NCBI GenBank assembly: GCA_025451045.1
Contig: JANWLD010000003.1
Coordinates: 197,690 to 261,689, forward strand
DNA length: 64,000 bases
From: Candidatus Saccharimonadales bacterium
Lineage (GTDB): Bacteria; Patescibacteriota; Saccharimonadia; Saccharimonadales; 2-12-FULL-41-12
Direction: 5' to 3'
The notes below the pieces were generated by a model. It did no database searches and had not been told where the DNA came from. It saw only the letters and a list, made by a program, of their open reading frames with translations. Of this stretch, positions 60,471 through 63,996 are shown one piece after another; position 1 is the stretch's first letter; each line of letters opens with the position of its first letter. The translations under genes and the position numbers were made by a program.

Positions 60471-61031
60471 TCAGTCGCCGGAACGCAGAAGCTGAGCTAA
60501 CAAGCCGGCCGAAAGCAACATGATTAAGGAGTAAAAGCCGACCTCACCGTATAATTCGACCTTGTATCCTTCGTTAAAATTAAGCACAAAATAACTTACC
60601 GCGGTCAGCGAATACGCGGCTGCTGACAATATAGCTGTCGCGTACAGCGCGCTTCGGCTGGCCAACAGCCCGGAAATGATAATCGGTATCACAAAGAGAA
60701 ATACCGCGCGGCTAGCCATCCCGCGCTCCTCATATACCAAAAAAGAAGCAAAGGCTATGTCTGAGAGTATCATCAGTCCGAGAAGGGATTTATATAGGTG
60801 TATGTGCCCGGAGCGGGATTTTACCAAATACCAAATAATTCCATCGACAGCCATTAGTCCGGATATCGCTACCCACCTCTTTAGCACCGATTCCGGGGTA
60901 ATTAACTGGGAAGCGTCATAGATAATAGTCTGGCCAATTAGAGCCAAAATAAGTACGAAATGTAGTTTGCAAAAACCAATTAGCCCGCTTCGAAGGCGTG
61001 TTTCCGTAGGTTTATTGTTTCTTTTTGCCAT
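60471..61031 (-). CDS. Hypothetical integral membrane protein (5-6 TM)
   Basis: Hydrophobic profile only. Confidence 0.5.
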   Translation of the reverse strand: MAKRNNKPTETRLRSGLIGFCKLHFVLILALIGQTIIYDASQLITPESVLKRWVAISGLMAVDGIIWYLVKSRSGHIHLYKSLLGLMILSDIAFASFLVYEERGMASRAVFLFVIPIIISGLLASRSALYATAILSAAAYSLTAVSYFVLNFNEGYKVELYGEVGFYSLIMLLSAGLLAQLLRSGD

Positions 61032-61064
61032 AAGTTAGCCTTAAGCATTATAGCAAGCCGTTTT

Positions 61065-61466
61065 TCAATTGATAAATTGCGAAGCCGCTACCAACAAGAT
61101 GGTGATTAAAAGAGCAATTGTCGCGGACTTTTTAGTCAGTTGGTGAGCATACTTCTTGTCTTTGTCGCGTTTATTCTGGCTAAGCACGTTCTGGGTGATT
61201 CCCTGCTCGCTTGTCATGTTGTAGCGGCCGCTGCGGGCGTAATTGGTGCAAAAGCCGTATTTAGCCTCATTAAGGCCGTGAACGGATATAAAAATAGGCA
61301 CTATTATAATCGCGTACAGCCATATGGGTACATTAAAGAAAACCAGCATGGTATAAAGAGCGACGCTAACCAAACCGACGCCATAGCCAACTACCCGCTT
61401 GCGATACTTAATTTCTGATTCGCCGATATTACATTTACCGGCTTGATATTCTTTGGACATATCCAC
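61065..61466 (-). CDS. Hypothetical membrane protein (3 TM)
   Basis: Hydrophobic profile only; no motif recognised. Confidence 0.45.
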   Translation of the reverse strand: MDMSKEYQAGKCNIGESEIKYRKRVVGYGVGLVSVALYTMLVFFNVPIWLYAIIIVPIFISVHGLNEAKYGFCTNYARSGRYNMTSEQGITQNVLSQNKRDKDKKYAHQLTKKSATIALLITILLVAASQFIN

Positions 61467-61478
61467 CTATTATAACCG

Positions 61479-61706
61479 TTAGTTGCTTAAGTCTGTGGTT
61501 CGGTAATTGGCCGGCGGAGGTAATTCAAAAAGCCAGCCGGTTGTTTTAAGCCGTTTGAATACAGGAGCTACTTTTTGAACCCTTACGGCTCTTTCCACGG
61601 CTTGGGCTATGCCTTCAAGAATGGAATCGTTATCTGGCACTAGTGTTTCTTCACCGCCCACTACTTCAACTTTGTAGCCGCTGCCTAGTACTTCGCCATC
61701 TTTCAT
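61479..61706 (-). CDS. Hypothetical small protein
   Basis: The ORF abuts the downstream gene on the same strand. There is no other support. Confidence 0.35.
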   Translation of the reverse strand: MKDGEVLGSGYKVEVVGGEETLVPDNDSILEGIAQAVERAVRVQKVAPVFKRLKTTGWLFELPPPANYRTTDLSN

Positions 61707-61805: not shown

Positions 61806-62426
61806 TTGTATTATTTAACAATAGTGTTAGCTAAGTTTTATAAATTAAGCCATATCAACCAAGGTATTATCATCGGGTGCCTGCTGGTAATTGCTTTGGC
61901 TTGTGCTATCCCGGTTCGGCTGATTTATTCGCTAAACCATATTGGCCCGACTACCATTCAGCAGCCAGCAGTCAAGCCTTACTCCGCGCCTAAAAGCAGC
62001 ATTTCTGGCAAGCCAGTTGATCTTAACATCCCTTCCTTGCAAATTCATCTGCCGGTAATCGACGGCCAGTATAATCCAAACACGAACGGATGGACACTAA
62101 CAGATGGTAATGTCCAATATTTAGTCGATAGCGCCCAACCTAATAATCTAGGCGGCAAGACTTTCATCTATGGCCACGCCCTCAGAAGTGTTTTTGGAAG
62201 GCTGCAATACATTCAGCCTGACGCGGTATTATCATTAACTACCAACAACGGCTACCAGTTCAATTATCGGTTTAAATCTAGTTTCGCAACCTCGCCATCG
62301 GATCTTTCGGTCCTTCATAATACTAAAAAGCCCGTACTTTACGTACAAACTTGCTCGGGTGTTTTCTCCCAGCATCGTCAAATATTCAACTTCGAGTACG
62401 TCGGCTACGAAAAAATTAAAACTTAG
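61806..62426 (+). CDS. Sortase-family transpeptidase, N-terminal TM anchor
   Basis: A TM segment (GIIIGCLLVIALACAI) is followed by LNIPSLQIHLPVI, FIYGH (catalytic His), LYVQTCSG (catalytic Cys in a TLxTC-like context) and a later HR. It has a non-ATG start (TTG at 61806 or GTG at 61824). Confidence 0.7.
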   Translation: MYYLTIVLAKFYKLSHINQGIIIGCLLVIALACAIPVRLIYSLNHIGPTTIQQPAVKPYSAPKSSISGKPVDLNIPSLQIHLPVIDGQYNPNTNGWTLTDGNVQYLVDSAQPNNLGGKTFIYGHALRSVFGRLQYIQPDAVLSLTTNNGYQFNYRFKSSFATSPSDLSVLHNTKKPVLYVQTCSGVFSQHRQIFNFEYVGYEKIKT

Positions 62427-63772
62427 GCAGCCGAAACTTCAATACCCTCGCGCGTACCCCAACCGGTACGTCTGCAAGTAGCGATGGCATACCACCTAAT
62501 TATCCGAAGTACGAAATATGCCCACAGAGACGACGGCAAGGCTGTCGCGTAGGTTAACATCTGTGACTTAAACGTTTCATCGCTACGTTTAATAGTCAGA
62601 TAGAACAGGGCCTGACCATAACCAACAAGAATTGGGACAAGAATCAGGAGAGGGATAACTGTACGGGTGAGTATCGGAGTCAAAATGAACAGGGATATGA
62701 AAATTGCCAGCGAAATTGCCATCTGCAGCCAACCGAACATATGCGACCAATAGCCATAGCTGTTAAGCGGTAGGTATTTGAATCGCCAGAAGGTACGGAT
62801 AAAAGCGCCTCGCATCCATCTGACGTATTGTCGGATATGATGGTCTAGGTTTTCGGGCATTGCCGTGAAGGCGAAGCTCGAAGTCTGTTGCACTGCCTTG
62901 CCTTCGACGAGGGCATATAGGGTTAACATCGAGTCATCAGAGAATTCAACCGGCCGGCCGAAAAATGATTCGTTAATATAACCATCTAGATTCTTACGTA
63001 CAACCTTGCCGTCATAGAAAGCCAAGACACCGGAGTTCACCAGCACCGACCCCATGGTCGACATAGATGAACGATCTACCAGCTGGCCCATGACGAACCA
63101 TAGGTCGGTAAATCGAGTTAAGAAATTCTTTTGGTTGTTGATTGCCATCACAATGCCGGCAACTGACTTGACTTTAGGGTCAATGAAAGGCTTGAGCCCT
63201 TCCTTAACCGCCTCGCGGTCCAGTATCCCGTCAGAGTCGACAGTCAGGTAAACATTAGCCCGGCGGGCCATGTTAATGGCTACGTACTGGGCATGGCGTT
63301 TACCGCCGTTCTCAGTACGTTTCCAATACATCCGGATTCCGGCCTCTTCGGCGCGCTTAAAAGCCCATTTCTTGACTTCTCGGTAGTCCGCTGCGGTTGA
63401 ACCGTCATCAATAACAATAATCTTTTGCGGTTTGCGGCTCTGGGTGATGATGGAGTTAATACATCTCTCAAGAAAAACCGGGTCTTCATTGTAGGTCGGA
63501 ATTATGGCAACAACTAGCAGCTTATTGAGGTAGGCTTGCTGTTGTTTGTTGACTGATTTTGGCTTATCAAGCAAGGCCAAGGTAGTAGTCCAAGCAAGCA
63601 TTAAAAAAGCAAAAGCATAGATTAGTTCCAAGTTGTTAATCAACGCCTTAGAACCATAGAGCACTGTTAAAACATGCCGCATGGCCCATAGGGCCATTAC
63701 GGCAAATAAAAAGGCGATGACTGGAATTAGGCGAGATTGACTCTGCCTAGCTTTGGGTCTTCTATACGCCAT
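62423..63772 (-). CDS. Membrane-integrated processive GT2 (hyaluronan synthase/NodC/chitin-synthase-like)
   Basis: IPTYNEDP, IDDGS, VDSDG, SDDSMLT (GDDRxLT-like) and QYVRW (QxxRW) are present, with N- and C-terminal TM clusters. The ATG at 63772 overlaps the stop of the upstream mini-ORF; alternative starts are 63787 and 63826. Confidence 0.8.
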   Translation of the reverse strand: MAYRRPKARQSQSRLIPVIAFLFAVMALWAMRHVLTVLYGSKALINNLELIYAFAFLMLAWTTTLALLDKPKSVNKQQQAYLNKLLVVAIIPTYNEDPVFLERCINSIITQSRKPQKIIVIDDGSTAADYREVKKWAFKRAEEAGIRMYWKRTENGGKRHAQYVAINMARRANVYLTVDSDGILDREAVKEGLKPFIDPKVKSVAGIVMAINNQKNFLTRFTDLWFVMGQLVDRSSMSTMGSVLVNSGVLAFYDGKVVRKNLDGYINESFFGRPVEFSDDSMLTLYALVEGKAVQQTSSFAFTAMPENLDHHIRQYVRWMRGAFIRTFWRFKYLPLNSYGYWSHMFGWLQMAISLAIFISLFILTPILTRTVIPLLILVPILVGYGQALFYLTIKRSDETFKSQMLTYATALPSSLWAYFVLRIIRWYAIATCRRTGWGTREGIEVSAA

Positions 63773-63926
63773 TGATTGACTTGTCATGTCGCCATGCGAA
63801 ACGAATCGCAAGAGCAGCACCCACAACGATTGTTAAAGCAATCGCTAGGATCCAAGCTTGGCTTATGACAACCCCACCTACTAAAAGCCCGCCACCTGTT
63901 GCAGGTAAAGCTTTAGTGTAGTTCAT
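63762..63926 (-). CDS. Unannotated 54-codon ORF consisting of a bare LPXTG-type sorting signal
   Basis: It is below the ORF-track size cutoff and was translated by hand: MNYTKALPATGGGLLVGGVVISQAWILAIALTIVVGAALAIRFAWRHDKSINGV. AAGGAGGAG lies 4 nt upstream of the ATG. LPATG is followed by a hydrophobic stretch and a basic tail. Confidence 0.55.
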   Translation of the reverse strand: MNYTKALPATGGGLLVGGVVISQAWILAIALTIVVGAALAIRFAWRHDKSINGV

Positions 63927-63954
63927 AACTCCTCCTTACATACACCTTAAAAAA

Positions 63955-63967
63955 AGTGTTGAACACT
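63955..63967. promoter_or_regulatory. 13-bp perfect palindrome AGTGTTgAACACT between promoter and mini-ORF (candidate operator)
   Basis: It lies directly downstream of the -10 box. A 1-nt loop makes a full hairpin implausible, which favours a dimer-binding site. Confidence 0.35.
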
Positions 63968-63996
63968 ATGATAGCATTTCCTTTTCATAATTGCAA
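63968..63996 (-). promoter_or_regulatory. Sigma70-type promoter (TTGCAA-17-TATCAT) for the mini-ORF/GT2 unit
   Basis: On the minus strand the -35 box is at 63991-63996 and the -10 box at 63968-63973. Confidence 0.45.

Follow-up and report, generated by a model that had tools for sequence, protein, structure and literature searches.

The window, a stretch of 64,000 nucleotides from a Candidatus Saccharimonadales contig, carries near its end a sortase gene, a gene for a processive family 2 glycosyltransferase (GT2) and a small open reading frame (ORF) for a microprotein with a sortase-recognition motif. The following features were located in this region (coordinates of the window):

61806-62426, (+) strand: sortase with an N-terminal membrane anchor (Pfam Sortase PF04203, 62 bits against a cut-off of 26.6)
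62328-62352, (-) strand: terminator-like hairpin with a T-run (consensus scan only)
62423-63772, (-) strand: HAS/NodC-type membrane-integrated processive GT2, 449 aa (motifs, Pfam, AF2/Foldseek)
63762-63926, (-) strand: microprotein gene, 54 codons plus stop (ORF list and sequence)
63765-63803, (-) strand: tail RFAWRHDKSINGV, codons 42-54, motif (I/V)RxxWRRxK, last codons overlapping the GT2 start
63804-63893, (-) strand: G-rich hydrophobic linker (GGGLLVGGVVIS), Q-x-W and transmembrane (TM) helix, codons 12-41 (column conservation)
63894-63908, (-) strand: LPATG sortase-recognition motif, codons 7-11 (invariant in close homologues)
63931-63937, (-) strand: Shine-Dalgarno sequence AAGGAGG (63937-63931), 4 nt before the microprotein ATG (sequence)
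63955-63967, (-) strand: 13-bp palindrome AGTGTTCAACACT (6-1-6), probably due to chance (sequence)
63968-63996, (-) strand: promoter-like TTGCAA-17-(TG)TATCAT (consensus scan, 9/12 matches plus the TG extension)

Direct inspection of the sequence confirmed the ORF at 63762-63926, its ribosome-binding site, its overlap with the GT2 gene, the GT2 motifs and the converging sortase gene, all of which had been listed in the preliminary description. The microprotein of 54 aa (MNYTKALPATGGGLLVGGVVISQAWILAIALTIVVGAALAIRFAWRHDKSINGV) is laid out as MNYTKA-LPATG-(hydrophobic 30)-RFAWRHDKSINGV. As had been proposed, it has the look of a sorting signal, with LPATG, a hydrophobic stretch and a basic tail, almost no cargo and no signal peptide. 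An in-frame TAA is located 4 codons 5' of the ATG, which excludes a longer form as well as a signal peptide. At the place of the Shine-Dalgarno sequence, a purine run of the GGAG/GGGAG type is found in the related loci L088, L086 and L004; in L001, a GGGAG run lies upstream, within a region bearing an insertion.

The ORF had been claimed to be real. Close homologues of the microprotein fell into eleven clusters (69-93% identity) and had been called as genes by JGI and others. Comparison of the homologues gave pN of 0.05-0.20 versus pS of 0.23-0.96 and dN/dS of 0.08-0.28, with synonymous sites saturated. In an alignment of 12 close homologues LPATG was invariant, and loss of the ORF or its motif, which would have spoken against the claim, was seen in none of these close relatives. 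These results established that the microprotein ORF is a genuine gene under purifying selection. With Pfam, the microprotein gave no match at E up to 0.1, Gram_pos_anchor included; with NCBIfam (including TIGR01167), the sole match was an insignificant one to SCO2097_fam (13.5 bits, cut-off 110). A search with a profile of the microprotein retrieved representatives of 71 clusters (E up to 0.001). Across Actinobacteria and in the epibiotic Saccharibacteria, GT2 homologues are preceded by mini-ORFs of this kind, and the family is mobile, with members in Streptomyces phage Kromp and in a prophage-like region. Wherever a source names a member, it is a "hypothetical protein"; otherwise members are unannotated. 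Apparently, the family, spanning Actinobacteria, Saccharibacteria and a Streptomyces phage, is an undescribed one.

The translation of the GT2 gene contains DDGS, DSD, SDDSMLT and QYVRW and matches Pfam GT2 families. Its scores were below the cut-offs of the NodC model TIGR04242 (135 bits, cut-off 550) and the PgaC/IcaA model TIGR03937 (56 bits, cut-off 422). By sequence, the nearest solved relatives are the hyaluronan synthases of Chlorella virus and Xenopus (E about 1e-16). The AF2 model (pLDDT 81, pTM 0.84) predicts a fold integrated in the membrane, in which TM helices at both termini surround a channel, and its top 13 Foldseek matches were CvHAS and XlHAS1, all over the full length (E about 1e-17, TM about 0.6).

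The last codons of the microprotein ORF overlap the ATG of the GT2 gene (63772) by 11 nt. To place this arrangement, we used 72 non-redundant GT2 homologues from Saccharibacteria, Actinobacteria and phage Kromp, with GT2 identities of 40-92%. A homologous mini-ORF ended at or overlapped the GT2 start in 71 of the 72 loci, the overlap being 4 nt in actinobacterial genomes and in Kromp. The proposed translational coupling of the microprotein to a HAS-like GT2 is supported, and the linkage of the two genes is tight and almost universal. Because 71 of 72 GT2 homologues have the mini-ORF, mostly in actinobacterial loci without a sortase nearby, the microprotein is primarily a partner of the GT2 and not of the sortase. 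It is most likely a subunit of the synthase, to judge from gene order and conservation; a single-sequence AF2 model of a fusion had a pLDDT of 44 and was uninformative about a complex. As for other neighbours, a UDP-sugar dehydrogenase gene lay within about 1.3 kb of the GT2 gene in 9 of the approximately 65 loci scanned, and polysaccharide deacetylase, GH26 and GH18 genes were also found; these neighbours are no more than contextual hints that the product may be hyaluronan or a chito-oligomer.

Two layers of conservation can be distinguished in the microprotein. The universal one, comprising the TM helix and the tail, suggests a synthase subunit. Among the representatives, the linker/TM segment keeps Q (45/60), W (40/60) and a hydrophobic core, and the tail keeps R42 (59/60), W/F45 (56/60), R46 (59/60) and K (45/59). 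TM helix and basic tail are conserved in sequence far beyond the needs of a sorting signal, and (I/V)RxxWRRxK is present even in short forms without the N-terminus, such as the 37-aa forms of several clades that have no N-terminal extension. The microprotein is predicted to be single-pass with its N-terminus outside and its C-terminus inside; with no signal peptide, export of the N-terminus depends on the positive-inside rule alone.

The motif itself is less evenly distributed. Of the 71 mini-ORFs that precede GT2 homologues, 31 have LPxTG or LAxTG at the place of LPATG, 34 are without LP/AxTG and 6 have a near-motif only; among the family representatives, 41 of 60 have the motif. It is scattered through the GT2 tree, being found in all deep GT2 clades yet absent from several clades. 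With the motif lost from about half of its members, the family evidently does not need it for its core function beside the GT2. At the motif columns, the representatives have L in 43/57, P or A in 49/57, T in 48/59 and G in 54/59, and ten different residues at X; Tyr3 is kept in 50/59. The motif is located at a fixed distance of 45-61 residues from the C-terminus. LPXTG and LAXTG specificities are known for sortase classes (class E sortases). Fixed L, P/A, T and G with a free X is the conservation pattern that would be expected of a sortase site. We scanned small ORFs on both strands of 733 kb (the window and the loci fetched up to then, with redundant contig copies counted) for L[PA]xTG followed by 15 or more residues without charge and then by a basic tail. 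Of the 41 matches, 39 were these mini-ORFs and 2 were C-termini of a classical LPXTG protein, so the pattern showed no random background.

The sortase gene converges on the GT2 gene, with 4 nt shared between its end and the GT2 stop. The catalytic His (IYGH), Cys (QTCSG) and Arg (QHRQ) of the sortase are conserved and align across 8 homologues. The sortase scored below the cut-off of every NCBIfam class model (class D, 34-36 bits with cut-offs of 140-165; class F, 20 bits with a cut-off of 166) and is unclassified among classes A-F by these subfamily models. It adjoins the GT2 gene in 5 of 5 distinct Saccharibacteria contigs examined (the window, L001, L086, L088 and the JGI contig of P0002), despite rearrangement of gene order. 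These clusters also encode a secreted polysaccharide deacetylase, a large CBM/Ig-domain protein with a signal peptide and no LPXTG, and no other LPXTG protein was found in them; the microprotein is therefore the only candidate sortase substrate in the cluster. In another cluster with a processive GT2 and a deacetylase, orthologous sortases (48-49% identity) come immediately after a second mini-protein (57 aa, LPNTG), which likewise has no signal peptide and is apparently unrelated. In L092, an orthologous sortase of 40% identity follows a classical substrate ending in ALPATG, and this substrate is coupled to a GT2 by 4 nt. Outside Saccharibacteria, a Pfam scan of neighbours detected no sortase within about 1.3 kb of the GT2 gene in approximately 60 loci, and a jackhmmer search started from the window sortase and run over every fetched flank (up to 5 kb or more) located one in L029 only, 4 kb downstream; the L029 mini-protein is without the motif. 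That the neighbouring sortase is the enzyme of the microprotein, as had been suggested, is made plausible by the synteny in all five contigs and by the sortase behind the ALPATG substrate in L092. The adjacent sortase plausibly acts on the microprotein, and the arrangement suggests that its target is a polysaccharide machine and not a surface protein.

The reading that we prefer, to which we give about an even chance from the sequence evidence as a whole, is that of a GT2 subunit with its N-terminus serving as a sortase handle. The microprotein would then have two functional halves. Its TM helix and juxtamembrane (I/V)RxxWRRxK tail would tie it as an obligate partner to the co-translated GT2, and the ten outside residues, MNYTKALPAT|G, would be the handle. 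The adjacent sortase would cleave between Thr10 and Gly11 (candidate peptide MNYTKALPATGGG) and form a thioacyl intermediate, from which the N-terminal peptide would be passed to an amine acceptor. Speculatively, this acceptor may be lipid II or a wall cross-bridge, or else a sugar of the polymer de-N-acetylated by the co-clustered secreted deacetylase. The G11-V54 stub would stay on the synthase. The purpose, again speculative, would most likely be to link what the synthase makes to the cell envelope by a covalent bond. Several points count against the sortase-handle reading: the many members without the motif, the near-absence of sortases beside the GT2 outside Saccharibacteria, the missing signal peptide, the atypical hydrophobic stretch and tail, the failure of anchor models to match, and the lack of any evident use for a decapeptide on the wall that carries nothing.

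Alternatively, the microprotein may be a synthase subunit only, with a role like that of IcaD or PgaD. Its LP/AxTG-like N-terminus would be a structural element in contact with the synthase or the glycan that emerges from it, no sortase would ever process it, and the sortase of the Saccharibacteria cluster would serve other substrates. The near-universal presence of the mini-ORF with GT2, when the motif is missing or approximate in more than half of the 71, fits this explanation, as do the loci outside Saccharibacteria with no sortase beside the GT2, the conservation of TM helix and tail well beyond sorting-signal needs, the missing signal peptide and the failure of LPXTG-anchor HMMs to match. 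However, the motif columns vary in the manner of a sortase site, with a P/A alternation that fits known sortase specificities; the sortase gene stays beside the GT2 gene in every Saccharibacteria contig examined and has survived rearrangement there; a second mini-protein, with LPNTG, lies beside the orthologous sortase in another GT2/deacetylase cluster; and the clusters offer no other LPXTG protein. We regard a role as subunit alone as rather unlikely, though it deserves serious attention.

A bolder form of the sortase-handle reading, which we think improbable, holds that the sortase sorts a glycan and not a protein, the N-terminal peptide being a covalent adaptor between the synthase-made polysaccharide and the wall. 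The polymer could be started on, or captured by, the peptide with its conserved Tyr3/Thr4, and the glycopeptide then transpeptidated onto peptidoglycan. Or, in a NodABC-like manner, sugar amines freed by the deacetylase could resolve the sortase-peptide acyl-enzyme, giving a glycan that is decorated or cross-linked with peptides. If the adaptor exists, a two-gene module of a temperate phage together with the housekeeping sortase of the host would make a minimal kit for an anchored polysaccharide coating.

It is also conceivable, at long odds, that cleavage works as a switch: it would turn the long form into the G11-V54 stub, similar to the naturally short forms, and thereby switch the synthase on or off, or else the stub would serve as a signalling C-peptide in the membrane. 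The decapeptide, released or linked to the wall, would be a by-product. The need for the lipid II amine would then couple polymer synthesis to the supply of wall precursors. This idea shares the sortase evidence of the sortase-handle reading, and several clades encode only the short form starting near QxW, from which it follows that the stub alone is a functional partner. In streptococci, membrane-retained C-peptides of sortase substrates act as signals, which also counts in its favour. However, Tyr3 lies in the peptide to be discarded, and its conservation argues that the N-terminal peptide itself matters.

Pilin-like polymerisation is very improbable. Lys5 of one decapeptide would attack the Thr10 acyl-enzyme of another and generate an isopeptide-linked polymer, as the preliminary description had envisaged; the comparison is with the pilin motif YPKN, and Saccharibacteria sequences do have Y-T/S-K five residues before the cleavage site. 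However, although K is the commonest residue at this position, ahead of G and R, no more than 22 of 58 representatives have it; the MSGGSLP(K/R)TG and MSD(N/H)AQLAxTG subgroups have no Lys upstream of the motif at all, and the cluster contains neither a pilin domain nor a second (housekeeping-type) sortase. Lys5 as a pilin-like nucleophile is thus unsupported.

Finally, the ORF might have no protein function of its own. It could be a regulatory leader (uORF) of the GT2 gene, whose start it overlaps, or a piece of an extended GT2 beginning with the upstream TTG (63826), which opens a reading frame of 467 aa. This is already contradicted, and we give it virtually no credence, because two phyla share the conserved amino acid sequence, with dN/dS values far below 1, the microprotein has a conserved TM helix and tail, the small gene is called separately by NCBI and independent gene callers, and the extension in the GT2 frame (MWVLLLRFVSHGDMTSQS) is not conserved in L001 while the M-x-YRRP start is, favouring a separate gene.

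Compared to classical LPXTG sorting signals, the microprotein has the same tripartite layout, LPXTG (LAXTG in Actinobacteria), hydrophobic segment and positive tail, with a sortase gene adjoining, and its topology would likewise put the motif at the outer face. It differs in having no signal peptide and only six residues of cargo; its hydrophobic segment is longer (30 residues, with QxW) and its tail is conserved in sequence, both atypical, and its gene travels with a glycosyltransferase instead of forming the end of a surface protein. Like IcaD (with IcaA) and PgaD (with PgaC), it is a tiny membrane protein co-translated from the same operon as a processive GT2, and a polysaccharide deacetylase is often encoded in the cluster. 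Unlike IcaD and PgaD, it shows no detectable homology (no Pfam/NCBIfam match), has one TM helix and not two, is encoded upstream with its end overlapping the synthase start, and carries a sortase motif.

The GT2 shares the DDGS, DSD, SDDSMLT and QxxRW motifs and the fold with Class I hyaluronan synthases (Chlorella virus HAS, vertebrate HAS1) and NodC, and, as in has operons, a UDP-sugar dehydrogenase gene lies near it in some loci. It is only 15-21% identical to the solved hyaluronan synthases and, unlike them, has a microprotein partner; we noticed no small subunit in the entries retrieved for solved hyaluronan synthases. The combination of a NodC-like synthase, a NodB-family deacetylase and an amine-acylating enzyme (here it would be a transpeptidase with a peptide donor) follows the logic of NodABC, but NodA is missing and the deacetylase is a large secreted protein; the likeness is purely an analogy. 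PEP-CTERM/exosortase (EpsH) systems are linked to exopolysaccharide loci (Haft et al. 2006, PMC1569441). There, too, a signal of motif, TM segment and basic residues and a dedicated sorting enzyme are embedded in exopolysaccharide clusters, but the enzyme is an exosortase and not a sortase, and motif and cell envelope differ. A PEP-CTERM protein has a signal peptide and carries real cargo, whereas the microprotein is essentially the signal alone.

Sortases, as far as we know, have been described as attaching or polymerising secreted proteins, and in the literature we found no description of a conserved substrate with virtually no cargo and without signal peptide welded to a polysaccharide synthase. 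How cells of the Gram-positive type retain synthase-dependent polymers is, to our knowledge, poorly understood. A motif in actual use would form a new link between sortase chemistry and exopolysaccharide/capsule biology, with possible roles in anchoring, cross-linking or gating a synthase-dependent polymer. The case also shows what it costs annotation to ignore ORFs below 60 codons.

Upstream of the microprotein gene, the 13-bp palindrome had been taken as a sign of regulated expression. It is not conserved in L088, L086, L004 or L001, and a role as operator is not supported. The promoter-like sequence that had been proposed (TTGCAA at 63996-63991, TATCAT at 63973-63968) is present, and TTGC and TGnTAnnAT are kept in four related loci; however, promoter-like sites in the region numbered 5 versus 4.5 expected from shuffled sequences, showing no excess. 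On the same strand, the terminator-like hairpin is located 70 nt past the GT2 stop, within the 3' end of the sortase gene.

Checked on the sequence, the ORF, ribosome-binding site, promoter, overlap with and motifs of the glycosyltransferase (GT2) gene, and convergent sortase gene of the preliminary description were all correct. These elements of the window are as follows:

61806-62426, plus strand: sortase gene (Pfam Sortase, 62 bits), converging on the GT2 gene with a 4-nt overlap
62423-63772, minus strand: GT2 gene (449 aa), ATG at 63772, with motifs DDGS, DSD, SDDSMLT and QYVRW
63926-63762, minus strand: microprotein ORF of 54 codons, product MNYTKALPATGGGLLVGGVVISQAWILAIALTIVVGAALAIRFAWRHDKSINGV
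63937-63931, minus strand: Shine-Dalgarno sequence AAGGAGG, 4 nt 5' of the microprotein ATG
63996-63968, minus strand: promoter-like sequence TTGCAA-17-TATCAT with a TG extension

The GT2 ATG lies inside the end of the microprotein ORF and overlaps its last codons by 11 nt. The peptide around the predicted sortase site is MNYTKALPATGGGL. An in-frame TAA is located four codons 5' of the microprotein ATG, which leaves no space for a signal peptide. At 62328-62352 (minus strand), 70 nt past the stop of GT2, a terminator-like hairpin and T-run lie within the 3' end of the convergent sortase gene.

A protein search with the microprotein retrieved 11 clusters of 54-aa relatives (69-93% identity), in all of which LPATG was invariant. 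When codons of the window were compared with those of four relatives from Saccharibacteria, pN was 0.05-0.20 versus a pS of 0.23-0.96, and dN/dS, where dS was estimable, was 0.08-0.28. These results established that the microprotein gene is real, as the preliminary description had supposed, and under purifying selection. All four relatives keep the promoter elements TTGC and TGnTAnnAT upstream, and most have a purine-rich ribosome-binding site. The exact microprotein was absent from public gene calls (best match, 93% identical) and is therefore unannotated in its source; exact-sequence look-ups of the window microprotein, the GT2 and the sortase (protein P0146, 100% identical) returned no contig. 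A reading of the mini-ORF as a leader peptide was ruled out by its conservation. The proposal that the GT2 might start at TTG 63826 fell as well: in the Saccharibacteria locus L001 the extension is not conserved, and the M-x-YRRP start is. A 13-bp palindrome (63967-63955), which had been taken to suggest regulated expression, was rejected as an operator because the relatives do not conserve it.

Homologous loci were collected by a genome scan, a metagenome scan (80 loci, GT2 identity 40-92%), exact-protein look-ups and from one phage record, and linkage was counted in non-redundant loci with at least 200 nt of DNA upstream of GT2. The microprotein was near-obligately and tightly linked to the synthase: in 71 of 72 such loci, a homologous small ORF ended at or overlapped the GT2 start. 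The sole locus without it was L009 (200-700), in which another frame stops just before the GT2 start. Copies from Carbonactinospora thermoautotrophica (WP_171842976), Streptomyces sp. NPDC020794 (WP_390929242), Oryzihumus and one Saccharimonadales MAG are labelled "hypothetical protein" at NCBI. Using an exhaustive profile search, we obtained 71 cluster representatives of the family at E up to 0.001, and from 60 of these the consensus M-D-Y-G-K-T-L-P/A-x-T-G-x-G-...-G-G-...-Q-x-W-L-L-(TM)-I-R-x-x-W-R-R-G-K was derived.

Conservation of positions among representatives of the microprotein family
Y3: 50/59
Motif L: 43/57
Motif P or A: 49/57
Motif T: 48/59
Motif G: 54/59
Q of QxW: 45/60
W of QxW: 40/60
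R42: 59/60
W/F45: 56/60
R46: 59/60

Tyr3 (codon 63918-63920 in the window), within the six-residue "cargo", is as strongly conserved as the sortase motif itself; it might serve in glycosylation or priming, in recognition by the sortase, or as an interface residue. In Pfam, NCBIfam, PADLOC and PHROGs no family matched the microprotein, and the last two were equally uninformative for the GT2 and the sortase. Membership of the SCO2097 family was dismissed (13.5 bits versus a cut-off of 110), and full-text literature searches found no account of such a microprotein.

The solved structures closest to the GT2 by sequence were the Chlorella virus and Xenopus hyaluronan synthases (E about 1e-16). When modelled with AF2 (pLDDT 81, pTM 0.84), it aligned along its entire length with these synthases (Foldseek E about 1e-17, TM about 0.6), which ranked above those for cellulose and chitin. 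These comparisons place the GT2 among the membrane-integrated processive synthases of HAS/NodC type; its best NCBIfam match was NodC, with 135 bits far below the cut-off of 550. At E below 1e-30, 907 homologues were found, in Saccharimonadales and many Actinobacteria. A microprotein-GT2 fusion modelled with AF2 without an alignment reached a pLDDT of 44, too low to be informative.

The TM helix and basic tail were universal in the family, including 37-aa short forms such as MTYLSQLWPVLIAVVLVSAVALLIRMFWRRGKGVSDT, and the sortase-type motif was maintained in roughly half of it. Strict L[PA]xTG was present in 31 of the 71 mini-ORFs upstream of GT2 homologues (20 LPxTG and 11 LAxTG), and a near-motif such as LPTAG or IPRAG in six more; three further motif-bearing members (L066, L072, L086/L088 aside) surfaced only in a pattern scan. 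Among family representatives the count was 41 of 60, in a sample biased towards the LPATG query. On a neighbour-joining tree of the GT2s, the motif occurred in all deep clades and was missing from several clades, the simplest reading of which is that it is ancestral and was lost repeatedly. The N-terminal context varies by clade (M-x-YGK..., MSGGSLP(K/R)TG, MSD(N/H)AQLAxTG) and L-P/A-x-T-G persists, always 45-61 residues from the C-terminus and with ten different residues at position X. Sortases of these phyla (class E sortases) are known with LPXTG and with LAXTG specificity, to which the P/A alternation corresponds. Such substitutions are what one would expect at a sortase site. In a control scan of 733 kb, the composite pattern matched nothing else but the C-terminus of one classical LPXTG protein. 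By inspection, presence of the motif did not go along with a UDP-sugar dehydrogenase gene nearby.

The module of Saccharibacteria is syntenic with genes for a dedicated sortase and a deacetylase. The sortase, whose His, Cys and Arg line up with those of its homologues, adjoins the module in the window, in L001 (duplicate L003), L086 (and L087) and L088, and in the JGI contig of protein P0002. GT2 identity among these loci was 69-90%; the adjacency, on which the preliminary description had built, was retained in every one despite variable gene order. The cluster always contains a large secreted CBM_4_9/Big_7/Polysacc_deac_1 protein. We considered this deacetylase as the true sortase substrate and rejected it: all five homologues examined had a signal peptide and none had LPxTG. 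This leaves the microprotein as the sole candidate substrate of the cluster; it is also the only sorting-signal-like ORF within the 64-kb window. In loci outside Saccharibacteria, no sortase was present among the neighbours within about 1.3 kb of GT2. A sortase acting on the actinobacterial forms would need to be a housekeeping enzyme with its gene in another part of the genome. The association with a sortase is confined to Saccharibacteria, where it is robust. Neighbours of GT2 in about 65 scanned loci included UDP-sugar dehydrogenase (9), polysaccharide deacetylase (7), GH26 (6) and GH18 (2). Between carA and the sortase gene, the window (60471-61706, minus strand) encodes a 186-aa protein (weak PilS-like 6TM match), a 133-aa membrane protein and a 75-aa ORF, none with a significant family assignment; in L088 the same interval holds genes of comparable size (189, 138 and 138 aa).

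More distant homologues of the window sortase were found in two other settings:

L089 5753-7962 and L090/L091 5750-8005: second cluster type, with Big_7-deacetylase, LPNTG mini-protein, orthologous sortase and convergent GT2
L092 5401-7787: sortase orthologue (40% identity) with a 4-nt coupling to another GT2 (394 aa)

In L089-L091, the sortase (48-49% identity) clusters with the same type of deacetylase and a different processive GT2 (414 aa in L090/L091, 408 aa in L089), and lies directly 3' of a signal-less 57-aa mini-protein, MSGQTPKVLSATTGAVL-LPNTG-GSRLVFWVAVIALGIGLVTLAV...KQRFNRA. In L090/L091 that GT2 shares its last 4 nt with an extra 54-aa basic/TM ORF (MKKNSLGQSGQRRKKK...). The L092 sortase is preceded by a classical substrate, a 195-aa N/T/S-rich signal-peptide protein ending in ALPATG-TM-YRRFTLG, which has the hexapeptide ALPATG in common with the window microprotein. 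The window sortase lineage thus recurs beside processive GT2s, and on two independent occasions it stands next to a cargo-poor LPXTG mini-protein.

The two-gene module is evidently self-sufficient. In Streptomyces phage Kromp (locus L094, MH744420; 1190-2868) it consists of genes 78 and 79 with a 4-nt overlap, annotated only as hypothetical protein and glycosyltransferase. Gene 78 encodes a 56-aa LASTG microprotein (VSDHARLASTG...IRFGFRRGKNAGQQ) and gene 79 a HAS-like GT2 56% identical to a Streptomyces homologue. The phage module may be a lysogenic-conversion or surface-modification moron relying on a host sortase. The copy of Streptomyces sp. NPDC020794 (L085 1-17476) is within a long run of small same-strand genes with an RNA ligase, a zeta-toxin/PNKP gene and DUF6011, which gives the region the look of a prophage; that of C. 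thermoautotrophica (L083 1-14417) adjoins a type I R-M system and an OLD-family nuclease. From these settings, the module seems to travel with mobile or defence regions. In the GT2 tree of L001-L088 and the window, the Saccharibacteria clade was nested in the actinobacterial radiation (nearest L028 and L002, Oryzihumus), which suggests horizontal transfer between the epibionts and the phylum of their hosts.

The microprotein has charges of +4/-1 in its tail and a single Lys at its N-terminus; GT2 likewise has a basic N-terminus. We infer that the microprotein would be oriented N-out/C-in, that its helix and tail may dock on the synthase, and that the sortase would cleave it at T10|G11. We favour, speculatively, a transpeptidation that would couple the output of the synthase covalently to the envelope, because a wall-linked decapeptide would be pointless unless it carried something, because Tyr3 is conserved, because the cluster always encodes an enzyme creating sugar amines, and because the minimal module occurs in a phage. 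The main rival, in which the LP/AxTG motif is structural and never processed, has genuine support but appears less likely to us; the loss of the motif in half of the family, the atypical sorting signal, the missing signal peptide and the failure of anchor HMMs to match speak for it. A variant in which cleavage serves as a switch seems improbable. Pilin-like polymerisation, for which Lys5 had been put forward as a nucleophile and rejected as a family feature, is close to excluded, as are non-gene readings of the mini-ORF in view of its dN/dS.

We classified the microprotein as a putative sortase substrate without cargo that is at the same time a putative synthase subunit, and its protein family as undescribed. 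It resembles an LPXTG sorting signal but lacks two of the defining features, a signal peptide and a match to the HMMs. In genetic behaviour it is similar to IcaD/PgaD, although the sequences share no detectable homology. The arrangement parallels the PEP-CTERM/exosortase association with EPS (PMC1569441), whereas the envelope type and the enzyme are different here. About 0.5 kb upstream of the module in two loci of one actinobacterial lineage, L051 (3826-4125, minus strand) and L056 (646-945, minus strand), we observed the C-terminus of a classical P/T-rich LPXTG surface protein; the motif is LPVTG in the former and LPATG in the latter, and the microprotein of this lineage has LPVTG.
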